A DNA stretch of 64,000 nt from Spizellomyces punctatus DAOM BR117 (GCA_000182565.2 KQ257454.1), one strand, 5' to 3'; counted from the first letter of the stretch, positions 10,016-28,576 are shown. Program-made: numbers and translations. The notes: generated by a model not told the origin, from the sequence alone.

Positions 10016-10315
10016 GAAGGCCCGAATAGAGTACAGATAACTGCGTCTTGCCAAGTGTAAAACTCCTTCAAAATGTGTAATTAAATGCCGCACTATTCTA
10101 GTAGTTGGTGGACTCTCCACGCTTACTGTTCAGATACGTTTTGCCCATCATGCGAGAACTGGTGCTTTCCGTAATAAACATGATCATGGTTAAACATGGT
10201 TGGAAGCTTCACTAAAATCGGATAAGGTGAAATTTATGCACGTGACTCCGATCTGGTTCAAAGTTGCTTGGGTTACTTGCAGGTGGACTTCGCTTCGTCG
10301 GTCCTCCTCGACAAC

Positions 10316-13300
10316 ATGAGCGACGCACAATTCCGAACATGGGTTTCCGATAACGTTATGAAGCTTCTCGGCATGTCCGAGAAAACTGTTGTGGATTACA
10401 TTATTGCCTCGGCAAAGTCGGCAAAGTCCGAAGCTGCTCTGTCTAGATCGCTGGAAGCAGCCGACCTACCTGCAACAGCGGACGCCAGACGGTTTGTATC
10501 AGAGCTCTATACACGCATGGATCGCCCGTTATTGTCCTCCAAAAAGTCACAACGACGAGCTGCTGAGAAAGAAACGGTTCGCCTCATACAAAAGAATCAA
10601 CAATTCGGCTTGTTGTTGGATGATGACGAAGTGGTGGATGGCATGGATATAGATGGCGAGCAGTCGAGGAAGAGGGACCGAAAAGAAAAGAAAGAAAAGA
10701 AGAAACTAAGGAAGAGAAATGAAGAGGAGACAGCAAAAGGTTGGGAGAAGGACTCAGACGATGAGCCGCCACTGAAGCGAACGAGACGAGATTCCATACC
10801 CAAGGAAGAGTCGGATGACGAATATACCAGGGACGAGAAGGCAAGAGAACAGGACTTGAAAGAGCGAGATGAGTTTGCGGCGAGGCTGCGTGAGAGAGAT
10901 AAGGAGAAGACTAAGAAGCTAGTGGAGGACAGGTCATCCAAGCAGGAGGCGGAAGCTAAGAAGAGACGCTCAATAGCGGAGGACAAGGAGGCTCGTAATC
11001 AAGCCATGCCAGACATACGTGAGCGATCTCGGCAAGAGTATCTTAAGAAGCGTGAAGATCAGCGACTCCAGCTATTGCAGAAGAGGATCGAGGATGAGGA
11101 GTTCCTGTTCCATAACGAAAAATTGACAAAACGTGAGCGTAAAGAGCATGAATTGAATAAGCAGGTACTTGAGATCACCCGGGAGAGGCTACGATTAAGT
11201 GACAAGGTGGAGGGGTATCAAATGCCGCAGGACTACATCACGGAAAAAGGAAAATTGGATAAGAAAAAACAGGAGTCTGTTTTGTATGCGCGGTATGAAG
11301 ACAACGGAGATATTGAGAGTTTCGTTACGGAGCAAGAGCAATGGGAACAGAATCAGATTGTTAAGTCGCTTGCGAAAGTCGGGACCAAGGACAAAGCAAA
11401 GAAAGACGAGGAGGACTTCGAGTATGTTTTTGATGATGAGCAACGCGTTGACTTTATTCTCGAAGCTGTGGCAGAGAAAGAGGAGCTGGCCGCGGAGACT
11501 GGCCCGCAAGTTACCGAAGCCGAGCGAAAAGCCATGTCTATGAAAGAGGTTCGAGAGTCTTTGCCGGTTTTCACTTATCGTGAAGAATTATTGTCTGCCG
11601 TGGAACAGTTCCAGGTGCTGATCATAGTTGGGGAGACGGGATCCGGCAAAACGACCCAAATACCGCAGTACTTGCATGAGGCTGGTTACACCAAAAAGGG
11701 CAAGATTGGATGCACACAACCACGACGTGTTGCAGCCATGAGTGTCGCGGCGCGTGTTGCAGACGAGATGGGGACCAAGTTGGGGTCAGAGGTTGGATAT
11801 TCCATCCGGTTTGAGGACTGCACCTCCGACAAGACTATTTTGAAGTACATGACAGATGGCATGCTTCTCCGCGAGTTCTTAACCGAGCCGGACTTGGCTA
11901 GTTACAGCTGTCTGATAATCGATGAAGCGCACGAGCGTACGCTACACACAGATATTTTGTTTGGCTTGGTCAAGGATATATCCCGCTTTCGGCCAGACTT
12001 GAAGCTTCTGATATCCAGCGCCACGATGGATGCCGAGAAGTTTTCACAATATTTTGATGACGCCCCCATCTTCAATATCCCTGGACGTCGTTTCCCTGTC
12101 GAAACATACCACACAGCAGCACCTGAGGCCAACTATCTCGCGGCCGCTATAACCACCATCATGACAATACACATCACTCAACCCAAGGGAGACATCCTGT
12201 TATTTTTGACGGGCCAGGAGGAAATTGAACAAGCTGATGAAGGCCTCCGAGCAATTTGTCGACAGCTAGGTAGTAAAATAGCGGAGCTCATCATCGTACC
12301 TTGTTACGCAAATCTACCGTCGGATTTGCAAGCCAAGATCTTTGAGCCGACCCCAGAGGGAGCGCGGAAAGTGGTACTAGCGACAAACATTGCGGAAACC
12401 TCAATTACGATTGACGGCGTGGTTTATGTGATCGATCCCGGTTTTGAGAAACAAAACAACTACAACCCAAGAACAGGGATGGAGTCATTGGTCGTAGTTC
12501 CCTGTTCAAGAGCATCGGCGAACCAACGGAAAGGTCGTGCGGGTCGTGTGGGACCCGGAAAGTGCTTCCGACTGTACACAGCTTGGGCATACCAGAACGA
12601 GCTGGAAGAGAATACCGTTCCAGAAATCCAGCGAACAAATATGGGAAACACAGTACTCCTCCTGAAATCCCTGGGAATCAATGATTTGATGAACTTTGAC
12701 TTCATGGATGCCCCGCCAGCTGAGACGCTCATCCGCGCATTAGAGCAATTGTATGCTTTAGGTGCTTTAAACGATCGAGGGGAGCTTACAAAACTGGGAC
12801 GGAGAATGGCAGAGTTTCCCTTGGACCCAATGCTCAGCAAAACCATCATTGCGGCAGAAAAATACGGCTGTACGGATGAAATCGTGTCGATCATATCGAT
12901 GCTTTCCGTCGGAAATTCCATTTTCTACCGTCCAAAAAATGAGCACGTTCACGCAGACCAAGCGCGGAAGAACTTTTTCCGACCAGGTGGTGATCACCTC
13001 ATGCTGCTGGCAGTATGGAATACGTATGTAGAGACAAATTATTCCATCAACTGGTGTTACGAAAATTACATTCAACATCGATCAATGAAACGAGCCCGGG
13101 ATCTTCGAGACCAGTTAACTGGTTTGATGGAACGAACAGAGGTGCCTCTAGTAACAAATCCAGATCCTGGCAATACAGTTCCCATCCGGAAAGCTCTTAC
13201 CGCCGGATTTTTCTACAACACGGCCCGACTCCAAAAGAGTGGGGATAGCTACCGAACAATCAAGCACAACCAAACCGTTCTTATACATCCGAGCAGTAGT

Positions 13301-13566
13301 TTATTCCAGGAGAATCCGAAATGGGTGCTGTACTTCGAGCTGGTGATGACAAGCAAGGAATACATGAGACAAGTCATTGAGATCCAGTCGGAGTGGCTGT
13401 TGGAGGGTAAGTTTTCCGTTTGATAAAACATCTGGAAATTTGCATACTAACGGCCTTATTTCACGTAGTTGCTCCACACTACTACAAAGCCAAGGAGCTA
13501 GAGGATGAATCGTCGCGAAAAATGCCAAAAAGGCAAGGGAAGGCGCCAGATGCAGGACGACTATAG
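10316..13566 (+). CDS. PRP2: Spliceosomal DEAH-box helicase Prp2/Cdc28/DHX16
   Basis: GETGSGKTTQIPQYL, DEAH, SAT, QRKGRAGR; PWI-like N-terminus, EQEQWEQ segment; one intron near 13408-13468, ending APHYYKAKEL...GRL*. Confidence 0.95.
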
Positions 13567-13843: not shown

Positions 13844-16800
13844 CTATCCACGTTCCTCCAAAACCTTATCAATAACTTCCCTAATAAATCCAGTCCTATC
13901 TCTCAAATCTCGACGAAATCGGTCCTGCAATATCATTCGAACTTTCCGGTTGTTCAGTTCTCCAAGCCGATTTCCTGTATGCCAACAGAATGAAAGCCAT
14001 GATGAGCTAGATGCACGTGCACGGAACCTATACAAACGATGGAGATCACATACGATATTCTTGCAGAATTTCACGCACCCCCGCCTCGATTTGCCCATCC
14101 GTTGGGCCCGTAACCCCGCGCTCGTCCAGTATCTTATTTATGGCTGAGCTCACAGCGTCGTCCGTCAACTCCCGACCAAATTGCGTGTCAAGGCTCGCTC
14201 GTATTTGGTCGAGATTGAAGTGATCGGGTTGGCCTTCTGTGTAAATATCGACGTTGTTCTCGGAGGGTTAGTTACGGGACGAGTGAGTAGCAAAACTAGT
14301 TAGTACTAACCATGCTCGCCGATCAGCCGTCGCACAGCGTTTTCGATCTCCTCAACCACCGGTTGTGATTCTGAAGGTTCCTGGTTTGCCTCACCATATG
14401 AATCTCTGTCCAACTTTTGATCATGTTTCGGATTCGCCAGGTCAGAACTATCTGGTACAGGATTGTTTACGTGCTCTTTCTCCTCTGCTGCAGGACTATG
14501 AAGATCGTCATGCTTGTCGTTTTCCTCCGCCGGAGTCTCTTCCTGCGTCTCAGTCCCCCCAACAGTCCCTTGTGCTTCTTCCTCAACCGGCGAGATTTTC
14601 TCAAAATCGTCCTTCCCATCGTTGAATACTGAGGACAACTGTGACACAGGTCTGTCGACTTCGCTGCTGCGACGCGAAGCATCATGTATGACCGAGTTTT
14701 GTCTGGAAGGTAGACTTATTGAACCTCGTGGGCTGTTTGGACCCAAGGGGATAGTTGTAAAGCCTGGACTTTATGTTAGCCTCGATTTATTCGGGGAAAT
14801 TTGCGCATACGTATCTCACCTGTAGCAATCGAGAAGGTCTTCGCCACAGGGACGCGATTTTTCGGCATTTCTGGTCGCCACCAACTCAGAACTGATCCCA
14901 CAATTGGTAACATGCGCAATATGCTAGGTTGCTAGATGGTAATGAATACAGCCTGCTCATCACGATAGGCAGATATCACGGCGCACCTCTTCGGCTGACT
15001 CATTCTGTAGTTGCCTCTCAGCCTCCTCTATTCCTTTACGTATCACGTCAGCTATTCGAGCAACAAACTATTGATTGGAGGGATGTGTCAACATGCAATT
15101 TTGTGTACTCAGCAATACATATACGTACGTCACTATTTCGCTCCAACTTCATGCCTGTTTTAGTAATATCATTGACGAGTTCTCGAATGCTCTCCAAAGT
15201 GAATGGTTGAGACGCCTAATTTTTTTGCAAGTTAAAACATTAGGTTAAGATGCTAGATAGCAAGCCACACTTACCAAGCCGATTCGCACGCAGGAGCCAG
15301 CACCATCTCGTAGTGCAGTGGGAAGCGTGCCTTTGGCGGCCCTACAGCTCTGAAAAAGAGACTTATCTGCAGGACGCAGCTCGGATAGTTGGTCCGCCAT
15401 CTGCACATTAAGCCCATCCAGGTTGTTGATGACTTCGGGGGCGACGGAGTCTGCGGTCACGTCAATATAGAGTGGAGTGTATCTGTCAAAAGTGATGTTC
15501 TGATGAGACTTATTCTAAAAGGTTTGCAAACTCTCTCTGCTGCGATTCATACCGAACTGCACCCAAGCCGAACCACAGATCGTCCCCTGGTTCTGTTTCG
15601 CCGTTCTCGTTCACTTGAGGGGCCAGCGACGCTTCATCCACAAATATCAACTCTCGCCTCTTTTCCACGGTGTCACGAAAAGCTTTTCGAAAAGCAATAG
15701 CTGAGAATATTCTTTCAGCGTCTCGCACAATATTTCCTGCCGCATGTGGCATAATGCGGGTTTGTATTTCGAATGCCGAGGCTAAAATCAGTTAAGCCAG
15801 TATTATTGCTAGGGACCGCCTAATCCGCACATGGCCTCTGACACGTACCAGATGAGAAGGGCCGATAACGAATGTATAGTATACCGGCAACAGAGACTAG
15901 GTCTATGTCAAGATCAGATCTCAACTCATCCTGCAAGTGAGCGTAGATCTACACAAAGGTCGGAGTGAGTGTTATATTAACATCCAGAAACTTTCCATTT
16001 CGTACATATTTGGTTCCCAGTTGGCTTTCCGCGAGGTCGTCAAAGATGGGCGGGTTTTGCTGATCCGCTAGCGAGTCCTGGGCAGTTTGCCGAGCAGCCC
16101 TAGCGTCAAACCGTACGAGTACTACATGAAGAGGCGCTTCGGCTTGGGAATGCCCTCGTAAGAACGGCAGGGCGGTTACTCTGTTGAAAAATACTCGCGC
16201 CTGAAAGCATCCAGCCATATTCATGAGACGCCTACCTAATTTTAAAGGCAGCCAAGTTGTTCAACCTACCAGCTCCTGGCCCTTTAGGACATGCCTTTGC
16301 AACCGTCCCTCATCAATCGTCTTCATTATTATCCAGAACGGTAATGTGAATCCGATCGGGGTTGGCATTTCCGAAGTCTCCCTTCCCTTTCGCTCTGTTG
16401 GACGAGATGCCGCTGGCGGCACGTACTCCAGAATTAACCTCCCGTTCACCATACTACTGCGCAGTGGTTGAGCAGTATGCTTGATTTTCTGCTCGGTTTC
16501 ATCCAGAGTGCGGAAGAGCGCGCCGTCATTTTCAGCTAATACTTCATTGGCCCGATTTGCGCGAAAGAGCGTCTATTGGGCATGAAGTTCAATGATCATT
16601 GTCCAATATGAAAGAACACGTTAATTTTAACTACCAGTGGTGGCAGGCCGCTAATGCCAAACCAGCCTTCAAAATCGATCACAAATGAATCTGCTTTCTT
16701 GGCAAATTCGAGATGTGCAAGAGTAGTCTTTTGGCTCTCGTCCGTCTTAACGTTCGTAGCAACTAAGAATGCGAGACCCATGCTATGAAAGTGGGACTGT

Positions 16801-18716
16801 GAGAAAGCGCCAAGCCCTGAGATGGAATGTGGGAATACTTACCCGTCCACATGCAGCCACATATTGCATTTATCGCAAATTGCTCTCAATCCCATCAAAC
16901 TGTCAAATTGCCCAGTCACCGGTGTTCCTACGGGACAGTAGAAGAGGACTATGTTTACATTATGCAAGGCAGCTGACTGTCGAACCAAAACCTTACCTGC
17001 TCGTGCAATGACCATACAGGGTTTCTTCCCTTCCTGGATGTCCTCATCCACCATTCTATCTAGTGCTATGAGGTCAATAGTTTCCCCATCTTGCACACTT
17101 GGAACTGCCGCATGTGAGATCATGATGGACGATAGAGGAATATCTGCGCCGTAGTAAATGCTCACCCCTCCGCAGACGAGCTTTGGAAAATCCAAGTACG
17201 GTGCCCAATGCAGGCCAAGAGCGGAGTAAATGCACTTCGAACGCTTTCGCATTAATGTCATCCGCGTGATAAATTACACGTACGGGGAGATTAGCGCCGA
17301 TTAATTCTGGTGTTTTGAGCCAATTCTCTTTGCCGTTGCGATGTATGCAACGCAACAGTGCATTTCGGATAGCTGCCAACCAATTGTTTAGAACTCCTAA
17401 CAGGCTTCTCTAATATGCGTACTCAACACTCGCACTTACCGGACGCTACGCTAGAAAAGCCATCCGCGTTTGGGTCTGTAAACTGAACGTAACCGGTAGA
17501 GCTCAAATTGAGGGCGGTTTGGATCCAACCGATTCTGCCAGATGCGTTTAAGTTGATTGATCTATCCATCTAACCAGATACCAGGAAAACCACTCACACA
17601 GTAGATTCGATCTCCTTTTCCAGGGCTACACGTTTGTGGACCGGTACTAGCCCGGGGACTGAGATGATTGCAGCTACCTGCCTTACAAGCATTTTTGCGT
17701 AGAAAGGCTGGGATATTTGCTGTGACCTACATTCGACATTATATAAATATGCAACGCTTTTAGCAGAGAATCCGGGTTGCACTTACATATCCGCATCACC
17801 CGCTGAAGAAAGTACGCAATGCTTTCGGACAATCTCGCCAACTTTTTCTATGATAATAAGTGGATCAGGATGATCAAGCTCCGCAGAAACAGGTGAGCAT
17901 TTGGAGACATCGCTGTAGGCACCAGAAACAGCGCGACATCCATAAGCACGTGATCCGGTACCTCAGATCTGGCATATCGGAACAATACCTGCTACTTGAT
18001 AAAAGGTCGAGAAACAGTTTTTGGCAGGCTTCCAGAGATCGCTGCGTAAGTTTATTAGATGAGACTCTCTACGCTTCGCGTGACTAAACCAGGAGCCGGA
18101 ATTGTACCATGAAAGCCGTATCAACATTCGACCCCACATTCAGGTGGTCCGGATGAATCCCTTTACTCCATTCCTGCTTTCGCTGATTTGCCGATCGAGC
18201 ATCTTCCTTCATCGGAGAAGTGATCTCATTTCGTCCTTTACCAAGGATTCCAGTCACGCTAACGCGCTTCTTGGGATGGGTGGAATTAATATTGGATCGA
18301 ATGACTGGAGAGCTCTCGCTGTCCCTCGGAGACAATGGATGACCATTAAAATATCCTTCCGGCTCATGAGGTGAAACGAACTTTGGCGTTCGAATAACAG
18401 GGTCTGTTCCGGGACTGAGAACGGAAACTTCACTTGTATTATTCTCCTCACTTTGACCGGCAGTTGACAGTCTCGGTAGCCAAGATAGCACTGAAGATAA
18501 AGATGCACGACGGACTCCTGGAGGGCGCGAAGGAGGTTCGGAAGTCGTAGGAGATACAACCACAGATTGCTGCTGGCTCAAGGTTGTTATATCAAACGAG
18601 CGCCGCTCGTGCGGCCCAACTGGATGAAGCTCGAGTACCACCGGATGCGGAGTGTCTGTCGGTGCCGTGGGCTCGGCTGCCTCTGTAGGTGCTGTCTGAG
18701 GCGGAGAGTCTGACAT
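13844..18716 (-). CDS. PDXDC1: PDXDC1-like group II PLP decarboxylase-fold protein with S/P-rich N-terminus and two C-terminal DEK-C-like domains
   Basis: PCMVIARAGTPVTGQFD, WLHVDG, CVRIGL, VIRKGIEEAERQL and ILRMLPIVGSVLSWWRP match PDXDC1-family motifs; in-frame splicing continues to the stop at 13844. Confidence 0.8.
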
Positions 18717-19077
18717 GGACTTAATAGAATGAAGCCTATATGAACGACCTGTTTGGTACACGAGGCATCTACCACGATGGATTTAGCTGTCACAAGCAAG
18801 GGCAAGGAAGAATTCCAGAGAATAAGCTTTTTGGCTCCTTCAAGAATCCAAGGACCCAGCCTCGTATCGACCCGTTGTGCGTTTGGGATCTTGACGGCGA
18901 GCAGCTTGCCGTTTCTGGGACGAACGGTCAAGAAGCGCGACCGCGTCCGTCTGGCGCAGCAGAACCAAATAACCACACATTTCATTCGAAATAAACAAAT
19001 GAACTCCAATACAATGCACGCAATCCCACATAATACATAAATTCTCATAATAATAATTAATAACCATTAAGAAGGAA

Positions 19078-20894
19078 TTAGTCCTCTTTCGCTTCCTTTG
19101 CCATCGCAGGAACCGCGGTTCCATCGACGACATCGGCCATGAATTTCACTTCGTCGTCGCTGGATTTGCTATGCACATTGGTCCCATTACTGCGACCTCC
19201 TTTACTGACAACTCGACTTCTTATTTCTTGGGTTCCATATTGCGCGCCAATGCTCTGACCAAATTTCTTTAACATCCTGTTGAAGCCCAAGTATGTAAAT
19301 CCAACTTCCACAGCAATTAGCACTACGTGGACAAGATAGTAATTGGCTTTCCAAATGGTGAGCGAGCTCTCCACGGAGTGCACAACGAAGGGCGCTGCAA
19401 AGTAGTTGATGCTTCCAATAGTGGCCGCCCATCCCAGCACATCGTAGATAGGTTTTAACGGTGCCAAGCGACTAGCACCCAAAAAGAGGGGACGGACGTT
19501 TCGCCGGATGGTTCTCGCCACGACATTCAGAAGACTGCCCGATATGAACGTCAAATAAAACCCTGGACGGAAGCCGTGCCAGAATGCACTAGTAAGATAC
19601 GTCGCCACGGCAGCAGCGCCGCTAGGCTTTGTACCGGCCGGAGTGATGCGAAGGTAAACATATCGCCGAAGCCACAGACCAGTGTTTTTGTTCCAGTTGT
19701 CAAGGGCAACCTTTGAGTTGGGCGCCAGCTCGAAGCCCAGAATCGCAATGTTTTGTACGCGGTTCCACAAATGTTTGCCGGTTTTGGGATCTATGCCGTT
19801 ATATCCCACTCCTGAAAGGATGCAAGCCGCTTCCGAAAGCTTCCAGGCGACATAATACTTTGTGCGCGCTAACAGTCCGGCTAACTGCAAGTATAAAAAG
19901 CTAAACAGAATCCTAGAGTCACACGTCTGCAGCATACGCACTCATCACTACTGGAAACGTACCGTTTTGGGAACGCCAACTTTGCATACTCCGGAGTAAG
20001 GGCATAGTGGTACGGGAAGACATTTCCAAACTTGAAGAAGACGACGAGTGAGACAAATGCGGAGGCCACCGTCTTCAACGCTGGGAGGGCGGGACTTGGC
20101 ATTTGGTCAAATGGTGGCTATCAAGAGATGACATCGTTAAAGACGAAGATTCCGAAAGCAGTCTTAGTTCAAGTGTCGCACCTCATTAGTTATGAACTTC
20201 CGGTAATCCGCGAATTCAAATGCTGGACCAACAAGAAAACCGCCGAAAAAGAAGACGTAGCCAAAATATTCGATCAATCCAGGGAACTTGCGTATCGCTA
20301 GTGATCTTTGATCCGCCGACAGATCCTGAAGGAGCAGGCATTCTTTTTGTCAGATATCAAATACGATCTTCTCTTGGTTGCACGGAGGACCCACCTTGTC
20401 AGGCTTTGTGCCATCGTGGGCCGCCCACGCAAATGAGGTCAGCTTGATTGCAAGAACCATCATAGGGGCAGTATGGTCGAAATTCGCGGTGCTTTTGTTG
20501 ATTAATTGACCAAAGATGTGACTGAAATGACAATTAGTGCTTAGCATTACCGACCATCCCTATAAGAAATCAAGACGTACTTTATCGATAGCTGGCCCAT
20601 GGCACCCAAAAAAGCCAATATAGGACCCCATTTACTTTTTCTCATAGTTGCTGTCAGCACATAGATTGCCAGCGCTTCCCCGACCAACTGGATGAATCCG
20701 CTAACATTGAAAAGCGAACAAAACAGCGTGCCCGACACTCCAATTGAGAAAAGATGTCGGGCAGTAGGTGAGGACGCGGGAATGAGGCGATATAGGATTG
20801 CTGCTGGGAACGCAGCAATAAGCATTACGGCTGCCTTGAGAAGGTCCGGAGGAACCCCAGTTCGGGCGAGGCTCTCTATATAATCGTTGAGCAT
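19078..20894 (-). CDS. ALE1: MBOAT lysophospholipid acyltransferase Ale1/Slc4
   Basis: MMVLAIKLTSFAW, KYYVAWKLSEAAC, WNKNTGLWLRRYVY, catalytic-His motif SAFWHGFRPGFYLTF; multiple TM segments. Confidence 0.92.
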
Positions 20895-21317
20895 CTTGAC
20901 CAACCCGTCCAACTGGAAGACTGGTATGCTTGCGAGAGTCAAAATGGACGCCTTTGGCTGAACAAAATAAATAACAAAATAGGTTGAGAAAACTACATTC
21001 GTCTAGTCTTTCATAATAAAGCGCGCGGGCAAACTCGAACTAGATCAGTCGTTCAGACCGTTGCAATGCATCCCCCATCATTTACAGTACAACTGGCCTA
21101 CTACAGCTTACCTGAGTCTGTCGACCTTTGCGCAACACCCCACAACACGGCCTTCCCTGCCGCCGGTCGTTATTTTAGTTTTTTCGTAGCACCCTCTTTG
21201 CTCGTCATCCTCTGTTCGAGCCGGATCTAAGTTAATATCCGTTCACCCTGATCAGTGCATCGCGGCACGTGCTATAAGCTTCACAACCTGCCTGACCAGA
21301 TCTCCGCCGCCAACTGC

Positions 21318-24300
21318 ATGGTTCATTTTCCTAGGAGCCCGGGCGGACAACTGCTGCGTCAACTTTCGTCAGCCCGATTAACTTTGGAATTGAACTGCTT
21401 CCAATGTACGAAATGCCGGCCAGTCTCAGATCAGGCGTCTAGCATACTGCGGAGAAGATTCTCAACCTCTCTACGTCAACATGATCAGCAACACTATGAC
21501 CAAGCGGCACCATACGGTATTGCCAAAGAGATACAGCAGTTGTTGCCGGAATTTGCACTGGAAGATCATGTAGGAGAAGACGGGGATAAGATAGGTTTTC
21601 CCGAATCTATCCATGAGGTGAATCCGGAGGACCAAGGAATGTTGAAATCGCCAAGGTCCGTTAGCCATTTCACCACCATGCTACAAAAGGGTAGAATTCG
21701 AAAAGCACGGAAGGTTGCACACAGTCCTGTTTTTCAGTCTGATTTGGCACGTTTGTCCCAAAACGATATTGAGAGGCTCCTCCGTTTAACCGTCACAATA
21801 TCTCTATCTCAAAGAGCGACAAATATCACGAAACAGAAAGATGGAGAGGAGCATTCCACAAAAGCCACATTTTCAGCGTCCTTACTGGCGATTCGGAGGG
21901 TGTTACTTTCGACGTTGATTACCACAATAACAAACGGTCCATCCGACTCGCGTCACGGAAGCATTTCAGCATCCCGAAGTGACAATGGTCGAAAGTCCAT
22001 GGCATATGCTAGGGAGCTGATTGCGGGTAGAGCTTTGAGAGAATTTCTCATATCACCTGGTCCCTTTGACTATCAGACTCTCATCACTGCACAGGCTGCA
22101 ATTGGAGAATTGGATGGCGCGCAAGAGACAGTCAAATGGGGTTTAGATTTTGGGGTTAAACTACCACTGGCATGCTTTCAGATATTGGCAAGCGAGCGGG
22201 CAAAGAGATGGCACTGGGATGGCGTTAGATGGGTGTGGCAGGCGATACAACGCAGTGGAGCACCTTTCCATCGAGCTGGCACTCGCCTCCAACGCCATTC
22301 TGCTAAATCTGCAAAGCGTTATGTGGACGCGTTATCAGCTTTTGTTCAATTGCATGTCCATGATATGGGGGAAGAGCATCTGTCAGATTTTCTCAAAAGG
22401 CACGATCTGTTAGATATGAATGATATCGGAGATATCATCTGGTCCCGCCACCCAGAGAACAGAAAACCGCAAGCGGCTGTGCTCAAAGATCTACTTCGAA
22501 CTTTTTCGAGTTATCCATCTAGAGCTATGGATGTTTTTGCACTGCTGCGAGCTTTTACACAACCCTCCTCAGAGGATTGCGCGATTGTAATTTCATCCGT
22601 AACTTCGGAAAATGACGATCAGAAGATATTGGATCTTGATGAGATGATGCGCAAAGATGCAGTATCTCTCGATACTGAAACTCGAAGTATCATCGAAACT
22701 GCGCGAGTTCGAGTGAAGCGACGTGCTGCACGAACTGGTGACAGCAACATCCGTTTTGCCTTGCGAAGTGACCCTCCAAAGCTTAAGCTTGCTTGTCAAG
22801 AATTTTATCGTGCACGAGAGGAAGGCCGGGTTCTTCGTGCAGAAACCATGAGCGATTTGATCACGTTCCATGTGCGCGCTGACCGTAAGAATGAAGCACT
22901 GGAGTTCTATCATACCATGAAGTCATGGAGTCAAACACCGAGCAGAACTGCGTATGGAGCTCTCATATCTTCTGCGTTAAAGAATAGTCACCTGACAAGA
23001 GTTTGGACGTATTATGACGAAATGGTCAACTCTGAGGATCCTGAAAAGCGCCCAAATGCGCGGATATGTTCACGGATCCTTGCCGCTATTTCGAAGTCCC
23101 TGCCAGGTGACCTGCGTACTAAGGCCTCAAAAGTAGAGGAAGAGTGGATGAGTATGGTGGAGGACGGTGTTAAGCCGAATGTGGAAATGTGGAATGTGGT
23201 TCTTTCAGCTCATGCCAGTGCAGGTGACCTGAAAGTGGTTTTGAAGAAAGTGGCGCAGATGAGTGAAGAAGGCATCTTGCCGGATGAGTTCACCCTTCAT
23301 GCGATCATAGATGCACACATCAAAAGCCGGAACATTAAGGAAGCTAAGGGCTATATGGAGGAGTTCATCGCGAAGACTAAGGTACAGCCTCTGCGGGCAA
23401 CCATCAATCTTCTTGTTGCGAACAGTGCCGACACAGCGTCCGCCCGAGACCTTGTGATCGAGGCAGAACAGCGGTTCGGAATCATGGCGGATTCGTCCAC
23501 GCAGAGCGCGCTAGCATTTGTCGCTCGAACCGGCGCGGGTTCTCCAGGTACTCAAGAAGAGGCGAATGGAGGGTCGACATCTATATTCGATCCTACATTC
23601 CAAGCCAATATGTTGCTTTCCAAAGAAGACGACCCCACCAAATTCGGCGAAATCCTGAACCGTCCAGGTGTGAAGCCTGACGTCGTGACATACACTACTC
23701 TCGTAGGCAAGCATCTTCATCATGGTCAGCTTGCTGAAGTTGAACAACTTTATGCACGCATGAGGGATGATCCAGCTACAGCACCGCGACCCGTTACCTT
23801 CCACGTCTTAATTCATCACTTCTCCCAACTGGGTGATGTCGTCAACATGCGTCGATACATCCGGGACATGGAGTCGGCAGGAGTGGTACCCCTGCCAAAA
23901 ACATACGCTAGCCTTATCAATGGCTTCTCTCGCGCGGGCGACCTTGTTACTGCTGAAGATTTTGTCCTGAAACACATGGTGGAACATAACGTGGCACCAG
24001 ATGTGGTAGTGATGAATGCTCTGATGAATGCACGAGTCCGTGCGGGCGATTTGGTAGGAGCGAGGAATTGGAGGAGAGTTATGATGAAAAAATGGAAGAT
24101 CGTGCCGAACGCTGTAACCTTCCAAGTGTTGATTGATGGATATTGCCAAAAGGGAACAAAGCAAGCGATGAACACCGCTGTGAAATTGTTGGAGGCCATG
24201 GAAAAGGATAGGGATCCAAGGGTCAGGCCCTCTGACCATATTCCTTACACCACTCTGATTGCTGGATATGGCAAAATCGGTGATATGGAGAGCGCGCTAG

Positions 24301-25583
24301 CAAGATTTACGGAAATGCTAGCAAAGAACATTAAGCCAGGGGTGGAAACTCATAACGCAATGATTGGCGCATATTGTGCGGTAGGCGACTTTCGGGGAGC
24401 ACAAGAATGGTTTGAGCGGGCATTTTTAAATAACCATCAGGAAGGCAACACATCTCTGCACCCGGATAGCGTCACGTTCTTTATCCTCATCAAAGCGCAT
24501 GCCGATGCAAACGATGCGGACGGAGTGGCTTTTTGGCTGGATGCCATGAACCGCGCTGGGATAGTTCCATCGCCGCCTATTCGAAATGTTGTTTTCGGGT
24601 GGCTATGTAGAACGGGCAGGACGGAACAAGCTACTGAGTGGTTTGAGATTATCCGCAAGAGTGGACATGTGGGGTCGCGGACGGTTGTTGCTGCCTTGGA
24701 AGCTTTCGCTAAGAAGCGGGATCCTGAGAGTGCTGAGGAATGGTTCTCCAAGCTGACAAGTATAGGTGCTGAGATCGACGTCAAAGCATGGACAGCACTT
24801 GCCGATGCGTATGGAAAGAGTGGAGATTTAGATGGGGTAAAGAGGACTTATGAGCGTATGTTAGAGGTTGGTTGTGAACCAAGTGCAGTAACATACCTGA
24901 CCTTGTTGGATGCTTATGCGAAGAAGGGCCATGAAAGAGGAGGACTAGAATGGATACAGAAAATGACGGCGAGGGGAGTAGCTGTCGGAGAAGAGCATGT
25001 TGTTGCTTTGATGGATGCGAGAGAAAGGGCCAAGAATTTGGAAGGTGTCCGGGAGTGTTGGTCATGGATTCTGAATCGATCATGGCCAGGACGAAATGGG
25101 AATATGGCGCAGAGTCCCAACGGCGCGAACTCCAAGCTGCCGGAACCACGTTCTTCTGAGCGTGCAAAGAGCCAAAAACCCGCCGAGCCGACAGCAAAGC
25201 CCCTTCCTCTGCACAGAGCGCAAATACCGGAAGCAGCTGCATGTGTTTACCTAGACGCTCTCGGCCGTCACTCTACACATGCTGACCTGCAAGAGGCCTG
25301 GCGAGAGATTCAAACACGTGCACAAGCACTCAAGTATGATATAACCGAAAACCAGGTGTCGTCTTTGGTCGAGGCATTGGTGCGGCTCGGTCAAGTTGAC
25401 GAGGCTGTGCAAGTGGTCTTAACTGAAAAGGCAGTGGGACAAAAGGTGTTGGTTGGCTTGATTGGAGGTGTGAAAAATATGAGTGGGTTGGTCCAAGCAC
25501 GGGCGACCCTCGAGCAAGTTCACGGGGTCGTTGGGCAAGATGTAGCCAGGAGAGTGCGTGAGACGGTCTTGGCAGAAGTCTAG
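21318..25583 (+). CDS. Large intronless pentatricopeptide-repeat (PPR) protein, probably mitochondrial
   Basis: Many ~35-aa repeats (e.g. PDVVTYTTLVGKHL, TYASLINGFSRAGD, YTTLIAGYGKIGDM, AWTALADAYGKSGDL); R/S-rich N-terminus resembling a presequence. Confidence 0.9.
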   Translation: MVHFPRSPGGQLLRQLSSARLTLELNCFQCTKCRPVSDQASSILRRRFSTSLRQHDQQHYDQAAPYGIAKEIQQLLPEFALEDHVGEDGDKIGFPESIHEVNPEDQGMLKSPRSVSHFTTMLQKGRIRKARKVAHSPVFQSDLARLSQNDIERLLRLTVTISLSQRATNITKQKDGEEHSTKATFSASLLAIRRVLLSTLITTITNGPSDSRHGSISASRSDNGRKSMAYARELIAGRALREFLISPGPFDYQTLITAQAAIGELDGAQETVKWGLDFGVKLPLACFQILASERAKRWHWDGVRWVWQAIQRSGAPFHRAGTRLQRHSAKSAKRYVDALSAFVQLHVHDMGEEHLSDFLKRHDLLDMNDIGDIIWSRHPENRKPQAAVLKDLLRTFSSYPSRAMDVFALLRAFTQPSSEDCAIVISSVTSENDDQKILDLDEMMRKDAVSLDTETRSIIETARVRVKRRAARTGDSNIRFALRSDPPKLKLACQEFYRAREEGRVLRAETMSDLITFHVRADRKNEALEFYHTMKSWSQTPSRTAYGALISSALKNSHLTRVWTYYDEMVNSEDPEKRPNARICSRILAAISKSLPGDLRTKASKVEEEWMSMVEDGVKPNVEMWNVVLSAHASAGDLKVVLKKVAQMSEEGILPDEFTLHAIIDAHIKSRNIKEAKGYMEEFIAKTKVQPLRATINLLVANSADTASARDLVIEAEQRFGIMADSSTQSALAFVARTGAGSPGTQEEANGGSTSIFDPTFQANMLLSKEDDPTKFGEILNRPGVKPDVVTYTTLVGKHLHHGQLAEVEQLYARMRDDPATAPRPVTFHVLIHHFSQLGDVVNMRRYIRDMESAGVVPLPKTYASLINGFSRAGDLVTAEDFVLKHMVEHNVAPDVVVMNALMNARVRAGDLVGARNWRRVMMKKWKIVPNAVTFQVLIDGYCQKGTKQAMNTAVKLLEAMEKDRDPRVRPSDHIPYTTLIAGYGKIGDMESALARFTEMLAKNIKPGVETHNAMIGAYCAVGDFRGAQEWFERAFLNNHQEGNTSLHPDSVTFFILIKAHADANDADGVAFWLDAMNRAGIVPSPPIRNVVFGWLCRTGRTEQATEWFEIIRKSGHVGSRTVVAALEAFAKKRDPESAEEWFSKLTSIGAEIDVKAWTALADAYGKSGDLDGVKRTYERMLEVGCEPSAVTYLTLLDAYAKKGHERGGLEWIQKMTARGVAVGEEHVVALMDARERAKNLEGVRECWSWILNRSWPGRNGNMAQSPNGANSKLPEPRSSERAKSQKPAEPTAKPLPLHRAQIPEAAACVYLDALGRHSTHADLQEAWREIQTRAQALKYDITENQVSSLVEALVRLGQVDEAVQVVLTEKAVGQKVLVGLIGGVKNMSGLVQARATLEQVHGVVGQDVARRVRETVLAEV

Positions 25584-27673: not shown

Positions 27674-28576
27674 CTATTGACCTCGATGGTGGTGAATCGG
27701 CGCTCCCTATCACCTATCACTGTTCCGTCCATTAGCTAACCATGTATTGACCATATAAAATGCGAGGAACTTACATATCCACCGCCATATCCGCCTTGAC
27801 CGCCATATTCACCTTGACCTCCGCCATATCCGCCTTGACCTCCGCCATATCCGCCTTGACCTCCGCCATATCCGCCTTGACCTCCGCCATATCCGCCTTG
27901 ACCGCCACCATATCCACCTTGACCGCCACCATATCCGCCTTGACCGCCACCATATCCACCTTGACCGCCACCATATCCGCCTTGACCTCCGCCATATCCG
28001 CCTTGACCGCCACCATATCCACCTTGACCGCCACCATATCCACCTTGACCGCCACCATATCCACCTTGACCGCCATATCCGCCTTGAAAAGCACCCGTCG
28101 GGGCGACGTTTCCTTGCCCATATTGCTCATCCGCCAACTATTGTCAAAAGTGAGCGACACGAACGAGAGTGCGGCGACCTAACTTTTCATTACCCTATGG
28201 GCTTGTGCAATCGCTTGCTGTTTCGCTCTGTCACGATCAAGCCAATCCAGTCCTTTGGTTTCAAACAACTTGTCCACTTCTGCGGCTGCTAGCCCTGCAA
28301 GAATCTCCTTCATCTGGCTATGCGACTGGGGCTGTCCATTCGCCGCACAGTGGCGCTCGTACGATTTCATAGCTTCATACCCGGCAGCGCCTGCAATGAC
28401 TTGAAGGTTTATAATGTTAGAATATGTGACTTTTTCGCTTACAAATCGAAAGCACGTCGCATACTCTCATGCGACCAGGAACTCTTGTGATGGTGTTCAA
28501 CACGCTCGGTATTGTATACTTCCTGGTTGCGCTGTTGCGCATCACCAAACCCCAAAAGATTCTCAAAATAGCCCAT
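27674..28576 (-). CDS. CipC-like (DUF3759) protein with Gly/Tyr/Gln-rich repeat tail
   Basis: Spliced MGYFENLLGF...HKSSWSHEIIAGAAGYEAMKSYERHCAANGQPQSHSQMKEILAGLAAAEVDKLFETKGLDWLDRDRAKQQA matches the CipC/DUF3759 pattern. The last exon (GAPIHHHRGQ*) is less certain. Confidence 0.85.
27775..28083 (-). repeat. Coding 21-bp tandem repeat: 12 perfect GGYGGGQ units plus flanking variants
   Basis: Units such as ccgccaccatatccaccttga and cctccgccatatccgccttga are visible on the + strand and differ mainly at synonymous positions. Confidence 0.97.

Follow-up and report, generated by a model that had tools for sequence, protein, structure and literature searches.

A PDXDC1-like protein with a C-terminal DEK_C domain in Spizellomyces punctatus and related chytrids

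PDXDC1 has been described as a largely uncharacterised clade (bioRxiv 10.64898/2026.02.14.704838), whose human and mouse members are reported to lack the catalytic lysine (PMC11016064) and whose mouse member is described as cytosolic (PMC5534953). The DEK_C domain has been found not only in DEK but also in slingshot phosphatases (PMC6457024) and in chitin synthases, where its role is stated as unknown (PMC13561034, PMC12653383), and the three helices of the related bundle of Uaf30 contact Rrn5 (bioRxiv 10.1101/2022.02.10.479882). Here, we describe a gene of the chytrid Spizellomyces punctatus DAOM BR117 in which a PDXDC1-like protein and DEK_C are joined. It lies on the minus strand of a stretch of 64,000 nucleotides (GCA_000182565.2, KQ257454.1), referred to below as the window, and the presence of the PDXDC1-DEK_C fusion at its 3' end is confirmed.

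The gene corresponds to NCBI SPPG_09084 (protein P0001), a single copy in its own genome, to which a search with the middle exon was 100% identical over the query; the same search also recovered the protein of Spizellomyces sp. 'palustris' (P0002). The spliced model comprised 1235 codons, from the ATG at 18716 to the TAG at 13846–13844, with no internal stops, whereas P0001 has 1213 residues, 22 fewer, as three short upstream stretches of the model are absent from it. A first-pass annotation of this DNA had proposed an in-frame fusion kept open by GT-AG introns, with junctions near 14821/14763, 14310/14239, and 14054/13976. The uninterrupted frame of 1235 aa and its conservation across genera bear this out, and the exact junctions, identical in P0001 at all three C-terminal sites, fell within 1–2 nt of those positions. 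The parts of the gene, numbered from the first letter of the window, are as follows:

13844..18716, minus strand, whole gene, 20 coding exons interrupted by 19 introns (43–79 nt, all GT-AG)
18108..18716, minus strand, exon 1, N-terminal extension of ~203 aa, likely disordered, with RRxS-type motifs, partly common to P0003 and P0018
16620..17912, minus strand, pyridoxal phosphate (PLP) fold-type I large domain (Pyridoxal_deC), Pfam PF00282, 47.7 bits, cut-off 27
16665..16667, minus strand, Gly codon in place of the Schiff-base lysine, aligned to the Lys of 8zpi_A
15129..15600, minus strand, PDXDC1-like second central domain with GLGAVRY motif, Pfam PF22937, 32.3 bits, cut-off 29
14820..15067, minus strand, PDXDC1 tail, long helix and LPIVGSVLSWW motif, more conserved than any other part of the protein
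14819–14764, minus strand, intron of 56 nt between the PDXDC1 tail and the linker exon, GT-AG, phase 1, with CTAAC branch motif
14363..14763, minus strand, acidic low-complexity linker, 29 D/E versus 12 K/R in 132 aa, predicted local distance difference test score (pLDDT) <50 in an ortholog model
14115..14362, minus strand, repeat 1, degenerate DEK_C-like three-helix unit, 58 aa, acidic, net charge -7
14310–14237, minus strand, intron of 74 nt within repeat 1, GT-AG, phase 1, codon 18
13847..14105, minus strand, repeat 2, DEK_C domain, the conserved copy, 60 aa
14053–13975, minus strand, intron of 79 nt within repeat 2, GT-AG, phase 1, codon 18

Transcript evidence was drawn from four sequencing runs, three of which (X1–X3) consisted of unspliced contigs without joints, whereas X7 alone gave spliced reads, of 60 nt and clustered near 3' ends. 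In X7, the intron at 14053–13975 was spliced out in six reads with five different start sites, and sense-strand depth over the last two exons was 5–18. Sparse sense-strand reads extended into the linker exon, at a depth of 0.2–0.27, and no joint was listed at 14819–14764 or 14310–14237, where coverage was equally low. Thus, the check by RNA reads suggested in the first-pass annotation succeeded at the last junction and not at the other two, and because X7 shows no joint there, the link between the core and the repeats rests on sequence and conservation. No in-frame Met was found from the PDXDC1 tail exon up to residue 1206, inside repeat 2, and the initial residues encoded by the linker exon were conserved also in orthologs lacking DEK_C, so that this exon is part of the PDXDC1 gene. 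Both observations make it unlikely that the DEK-like exons belong to a separate gene.

The two terminal repeats of about 58 residues, predicted earlier, are present, separated by three residues and identical at 19 of 58 positions; their alignment score of 80 was not equalled in any of 5000 shuffles (mean 23, maximum 53). The expectation of two Pfam matches to DEK_C failed, as only repeat 2 was recognised (PF08766, 30.8 bits versus a cut-off of 24.8, model positions 1–54 of 54, P0001 residues 1154–1209). For repeat 1, there was no Pfam DEK_C match: a single stretch was found in P0001 and P0002, and none from the exon pieces of repeat 1. The DEK_C-like character of repeat 1 came instead from a hidden Markov model (HMM) of 28 non-PDXDC1 DEK_C domains, which scored it at 19.5 bits (0/2000 shuffles as high), and from the tandem as modelled by AlphaFold2 (pLDDT 87.5, predicted template modelling score (pTM) 0.78), in which both repeats are predicted as three-helix units, the first having helices at 2–20, 28–39, and 45–58 and the second one additional short helix. 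By these comparisons, repeat 1 is a degenerate duplicate homologous to DEK_C. Each repeat begins exactly 52 nt ahead of a phase-1 intron, the mark of a tandem duplication at the DNA level, intron included.

Structural comparisons placed repeat 2 near DEK-C, although without discrimination from other small bundles. Foldseek aligned it to DEK-C 1q1v with probability 0.66, template modelling score 0.64 (target length), root-mean-square deviation (rmsd) 2.6, and E 2.4; in VIA, the same structure gave Z 4.9 and rmsd 2.6 over 64 aligned residues, tied with other small helical bundles, and Uaf30 (7z0o_G) gave Z 5.0 and rmsd 1.9 over 57 residues; these scores are not significant for bundles of this size. 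Fold searches with the tandem gave nothing at E <= 0.001. SENP3 (9me8, Z 6.0), which ranked first in VIA, was rejected as being within the noise for small bundles; the main text of its paper (PMC12292926) does not contain the whole word 'DEK'. Clusters of DEK_C in the ESM Atlas at 0.80–0.83 offer a lead only.

Membership of the PDXDC1 family is supported by Pyridoxal_deC and PDXDC1-like_cen2, both above cut-off, and from these domain matches, the common tail motif, and the names of homologs, we infer orthology to PDXDC1. As in the animal proteins, a PLP fold-type I core is followed by the cen2 domain and by a helix with an LP(I/V)VG tail, and the catalytic lysine is missing, as is reported of the human and mouse proteins. 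Unlike them, the chytrid protein is considerably extended at both termini, and neither P0001 nor P0002 matched PDXDC1-like_cen (PF22930), present in animal P0014 and weakly in animal P0015, at E <= 1; conversely, the PDXDC1 proteins retrieved from animals (P0014, P0015) and from an amoebozoan (P0013) are without DEK_C. The PDB sequence matches of the large domain were group II decarboxylases, and in Foldseek, the model of the Phlyctochytrium arcticum ortholog (P0003) matched tryptophan, DOPA, and histidine decarboxylases (best E 5e-18, range ~1e-18 to 1e-14). The fold-type I structure predicted for P0003 is therefore like that of active group II decarboxylases, from which the protein differs in having no Schiff-base lysine after the ADS strand. 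This lysine was absent in all 15 chytrid sequences among P0001–P0018, in which the segment varied freely, whereas a Lys was found at or beside the site in P0013 and P0015, and the four paralogous Pyridoxal_deC loci fetched from the same genome as a control all kept His-Lys. The Asp/Glu of the WLHVD motif was retained in 9 of the same 15 chytrid sequences. The chytrid PDXDC1 core is thus probably not a canonical enzyme. The lost lysine, together with the likely DEK donor considered below, points beyond the first-pass annotation, whose interpretation as a whole is partly supported.

The survey of orthologs recommended at that stage yielded 19 PDXDC1-like proteins, 11 of which have a terminal DEK_C. 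These belong to five named genera: Spizellomyces (two), Phlyctochytrium arcticum, Powellomyces, Fimicolochytrium, and Geranomyces (five), in addition to one Logan fragment (P0020). Five of them scored above the Pfam cut-off and the other six at 18.5–24.4 bits (E <= 0.002); as nine of the eleven had been in the training set of the repeat-2 profile, Pfam served as the independent check. The eight proteins without the domain, gene models that are possibly truncated, came from Gaertneriomyces (two), Rhizophlyctis (two, one of them partial), Borealophlyctis, Cavostelium, and two animals. In the NCBI taxonomy, Geranomyces, Fimicolochytrium, and Gaertneriomyces belong to Spizellomycetales and Borealophlyctis to Rhizophlyctidales; P. 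arcticum is filed under Chytridiales, yet its protein is the closest to those of Spizellomyces after P0002. Outside Spizellomyces, identity to P0001 was 40–63% in repeat 2 and 22–34% in the PLP large domain, and the tail reached 83–90% with P0003, P0005, P0006, and P0008–P0012 (30–38% with amoebozoan and animal PDXDC1). These values suggest selection on the tail and DEK_C and not on the old active-site domain. The alignment of repeat 2 had 16 invariant columns among eight rows, including an invariant LNNxKxR patch.

A clear upstream second copy was found only in the two Spizellomyces proteins. The corresponding unit of P. arcticum scored -0.6 bits against DEK_C profiles, with 450 and 73 of 2000 shuffles as high, and only its comparison with Spizellomyces repeat 1 stood out (7/5000 shuffles as high), so a full tandem in this species was discarded as weakly supported and the unit regarded as a weak remnant. 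The upstream copy of P0020 was borderline (8 and 19 of 2000 shuffles as high). Judged by these alignments, the conserved feature is one terminal DEK_C copy, the tandem being local to Spizellomyces. P0020 is a predicted protein spanning the LPIVGSVLSWW motif to DEK_C, and its repeat-1 region has an extra stretch exactly at the intron site of S. punctatus, possibly an in-frame intron that was read through. Scans of metagenomes for the DNA of relatives gave 0 matches with the tail pattern and 0 confirmed candidates out of 164 with the DEK_C alignment.

Regarding the origin of the domain, nine DEK_C matches were detected in the same genome: six of chitin-synthase type, one of SWIB type, one in a DEK-like gene (L007), and the PDXDC1 fusion, the gene types being assigned from flanking translations. 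The DEK-like gene is located as follows:

G000:C2:1798087-1801197, L007, DEK-like gene with a SAP-type region, an HMG-like segment, and a C-terminal DEK_C

This gene was matched by the DEK-like protein P0025 of Geranomyces, a relative of P0022 from Quaeritorhiza, in which Pfam recognises SAP, HMG_box, and DEK_C; the HMG box is not among the DEK domains named in the available portion of a 2026 review (PMC13088671), which gives DEK as absent from lower eukaryotes. The closest DEK_C sequences to repeat 2 are those of chytrid DEK proteins (P0022, P0025, L007), with 23–25 of 58 positions identical versus 12–19 for the chitin-synthase domains; the best pairwise scores outside PDXDC1 were those of three chytrid DEKs (121, 116, and 101), followed by one of 98. 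Searched against the S. punctatus genome, the Geranomyces DEK found the last exon of the PDXDC1 gene at 50% identity and chitin synthases at 31% and 26%. In addition, the DEK_C of L007 is split at codon 16, in the loop that follows helix 1, by an intron of phase 1, whereas the other seven genomic DEK_C domains, of chitin-synthase and SWIB type, are uninterrupted. If positions are numbered from helix 2, this intron occupies the same site as that of repeat 2; if they are numbered from helix 1, the two sites differ by two codons, an offset equal to the size of an insertion in repeat 2; the chance of a same-phase site within three codons, given one intron, is ~0.017, the range having been chosen post hoc. 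Because the closest match is a chytrid DEK and L007 has an intron of the same phase in the same loop, which the chitin-synthase and SWIB domains lack, the DEK_C was probably captured from the genome's own DEK gene, as its last two exons with their intron, and not from chitin synthases or SWIB/Uaf30.

In common with DEK, the fusion protein has its DEK_C at the C-terminus after a charged linker; it differs in having neither SAP nor HMG (no SAP match in P0001, SAP present in P0022) and in the two-residue insertion of repeat 2, with Asn-Asn at the start of helix 2. Class V/VII chitin synthases and slingshot phosphatases (SSH_N-DEK_C-DSPc) resemble it in that DEK_C is appended to a non-chromatin enzyme, although the host protein of the chitin-synthase domain is another one and no transmembrane segment was found in the PDXDC1 fusion (best 19-residue hydropathy 1.45). 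The N-terminal DEK-type bundle of Uaf30/SWIB appears to share the same small fold and provides a precedent for protein–protein contact, but it is placed at the opposite end and in a nuclear complex, and the SWIB-type domain was the weakest match among the DEK_C domains of the genome (6.4 bits).

In this Spizellomyces-type chytrid, the only PDXDC1 ortholog keeps the PLP fold without the Schiff-base lysine and ends, behind a flexible acidic linker, in the conserved DEK_C; in the Spizellomyces line, this unit was duplicated in tandem, intron included, and the upstream copy has decayed. We propose that repeat 2 may act as a tethered docking module through which a PDXDC1 that is catalytically dead or non-canonical is linked to some partner or compartment, in the way that the DEK-type helices of Uaf30 contact Rrn5, or as DEK_C could on slingshot and class V/VII chitin synthases, with repeat 1 as an accessory, acidic copy. 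We hold this protein-docking role on a pseudo-enzyme tentatively, as plausible rather than probable. Several results weigh against parts of this account. The docking role is drawn by analogy; RNA supports one of the three C-terminal junctions; and both models from Gaertneriomyces, of the same family as Spizellomyces, are without DEK_C. As for the donor, the intron match hinges on the placement of a two-residue gap in one genome (MAFFT puts the sites two codons apart), and the chitin-synthase-like protein P0021 scored 43.8 bits under the repeat-2 profile, amid the DEKs (41.8–45.0). Trees were built from 28 of 40 domains and, for the donor, from 23 of 40, leaving out both repeat 1 copies, the upstream unit of P0003, multi-copy proteins, and three long branches. 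The 23-domain tree set PDXDC1 and DEK apart from the chitin-synthase types with support of 91/88, which is not starred, and the approximately unbiased (AU) test failed to reject a grouping with chitin-synthase domains (p 0.058). Finally, a sponge Pdxdc1 partly rescues C. elegans monoamine-synthesis mutants (bioRxiv 10.64898/2026.02.14.704838), so proteins of the PDXDC1 family may not be dead enzymes.

The main alternative to protein docking is that repeat 2 retains the nucleic-acid binding of DEK, by which the PDXDC1 core would be anchored either on cytoplasmic RNA (mRNA or rRNA) or on chromatin, a role that we consider possible, if doubtful. The probable DEK donor fits such a role, human DEK-C being a DNA/RNA-binding and multimerising region whose residues 332–349 contact mRNA (PMC13088671, bioRxiv 10.1101/2024.08.23.609341); through the 1q1v alignment, these residues would map roughly onto the LNNxKxR patch, and several invariant residues of repeat 2 are basic (R, K). 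However, the net charge of the nine terminal domains counted was -3 to +3, near neutral and no more basic than chitin-synthase DEK_C, with repeat 1 at -7, and the main DNA-binding unit of DEK is SAP, nucleosome binding being unaffected by deletion of DEK-C (PMC13088671). A nuclear role finds little in a simple scan for patterns of nuclear localisation signals, which gave only two short basic clusters, one of them inside the N-terminal extension that several orthologs lack. A broader and speculative scenario, which we rate as rather unlikely, is that ancestral Spizellomycetales copied the last two exons of DEK onto a lysine-less PDXDC1, where the acquired domain came under stronger constraint than the catalytic one, and that the pseudo-enzyme uses its PLP fold to read a small molecule, whether PLP, an amine, or a lipid head group, and couples it through the DEK-derived domain to RNA, chromatin, or DEK partners. 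Were this true, it would point to the roles of PDXDC1 and of the 'orphan' chitin-synthase DEK_C in a way testable in S. punctatus.

Self-association of DEK_C, by which PDXDC1 molecules would be joined into larger assemblies with the Spizellomyces tandem as an intramolecular version, seems unlikely to us. PLP proteins of fold type I form obligate dimers (PMC11016064), which would present two tails, the C-terminal region of DEK is a multimerisation domain (bioRxiv 10.1101/2024.08.23.609341), and the pTM of the tandem model would be compatible with a defined arrangement of the repeats; but multimerisation of DEK involves residues 250/270–375, exceeding the 54-residue Pfam domain (same source), most genera have a single copy, and repeat 1 is decaying, as in P0003. 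Complex prediction with two copies of repeat 2 (0.39, 0.20, and 0.20 in three runs versus a mark of 0.32) gave evidence neither way. An active core, either a non-canonical decarboxylase or a PLP/amine-binding protein whose activity or location DEK_C merely regulates, would agree with the sponge rescue, the retained WLHVD Asp/Glu, and the Lys at or beside the site in P0013 and P0015. It appears very unlikely in view of chytrid orthologs that lack the lysine in a freely varying segment and of a PLP domain that is the fastest-diverging folded part. Most improbable of all would be a gene-model artefact or neutral passenger, with the DEK_C exons forming a separate gene or a minor isoform. The two unbridged upstream junctions, the ortholog sequences being mostly predicted models, and the Gaertneriomyces models agree with it, yet the absence of an in-frame Met, the sense reads reaching the linker exon, the strong conservation of repeat 2, and the recurrence of the architecture in five named genera, whose genomes were annotated independently, and in a Logan-derived protein all argue against it.

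The fusion is already present in the precomputed Pfam annotation for P0001, P0002, P0003, and P0006. Literature searches, with subscription journals and supplements outside their scope, found no paper on a PDXDC1-DEK_C fusion, so that this narrowly distributed, lineage-limited PDXDC1 form built from a known mobile domain is apparently undescribed. As a conserved natural fusion, it offers one gene in which domain deletion can probe both PDXDC1 and DEK_C, and it represents a candidate domain capture traceable by an intron and followed by tandem duplication. It also points to DEK-like genes in chytrids, contrary to the 2026 review (PMC13088671).

Tandem DEK_C arrays are not unique to the PDXDC1 fusion, as they were observed in P0019 from Rhizophlyctis rosea (4481 aa, six copies with HSF and homeodomain matches), in P0024 from Mortierella (three in tandem), and in P0033 (two fused to a PARP domain). 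In S. punctatus, the gene L008 (G000:C17:392107-395259) is chitin-synthase-like and divergent; its DEK_C match is weak (23.4 bits), and the EDR and QRRRW motifs of L001 and L005 are altered in it.

In the model of P0003, pLDDT was <50 for residues 1–199, and a low-confidence linker preceded a confident terminal domain. The RRxS/KRxS motifs of the N-terminal extension resemble what we take to be protein kinase A sites, and a short SVLSWL sequence within the extension is similar to the SVLSWW of the C-terminal motif. Pfam matches to Rhv, Raptor_N, PilB3_C, and DUF7553 were below cut-off and were disregarded, and the ESM Atlas gave no usable match for residues 780–975.

Over exon 1 and the upstream gap (18284–19000), X7 contained plus-oriented reads at depth 0.6–7.3, opposite to the gene's own 3' reads, which may correspond to an antisense transcript or a priming artefact. 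The convergent neighbour at 10226–13423 (plus strand) is an open frame of 1065 codons, presumably for a splicing helicase of the DEAH-box type, with motifs like those of Prp2/DHX16. Upstream lie 19078–21002 (minus strand), which we take to be an MBOAT-type lysophospholipid acyltransferase-like gene, and 21252–25583 (minus strand), a long open frame of 1443 codons, presumably of the pentatricopeptide repeat (PPR)-like kind. Farther away, at 27736–28137 (minus strand), a Gly/Tyr/Gln-rich tandem repeat of GGQGGY units is found within an open frame.

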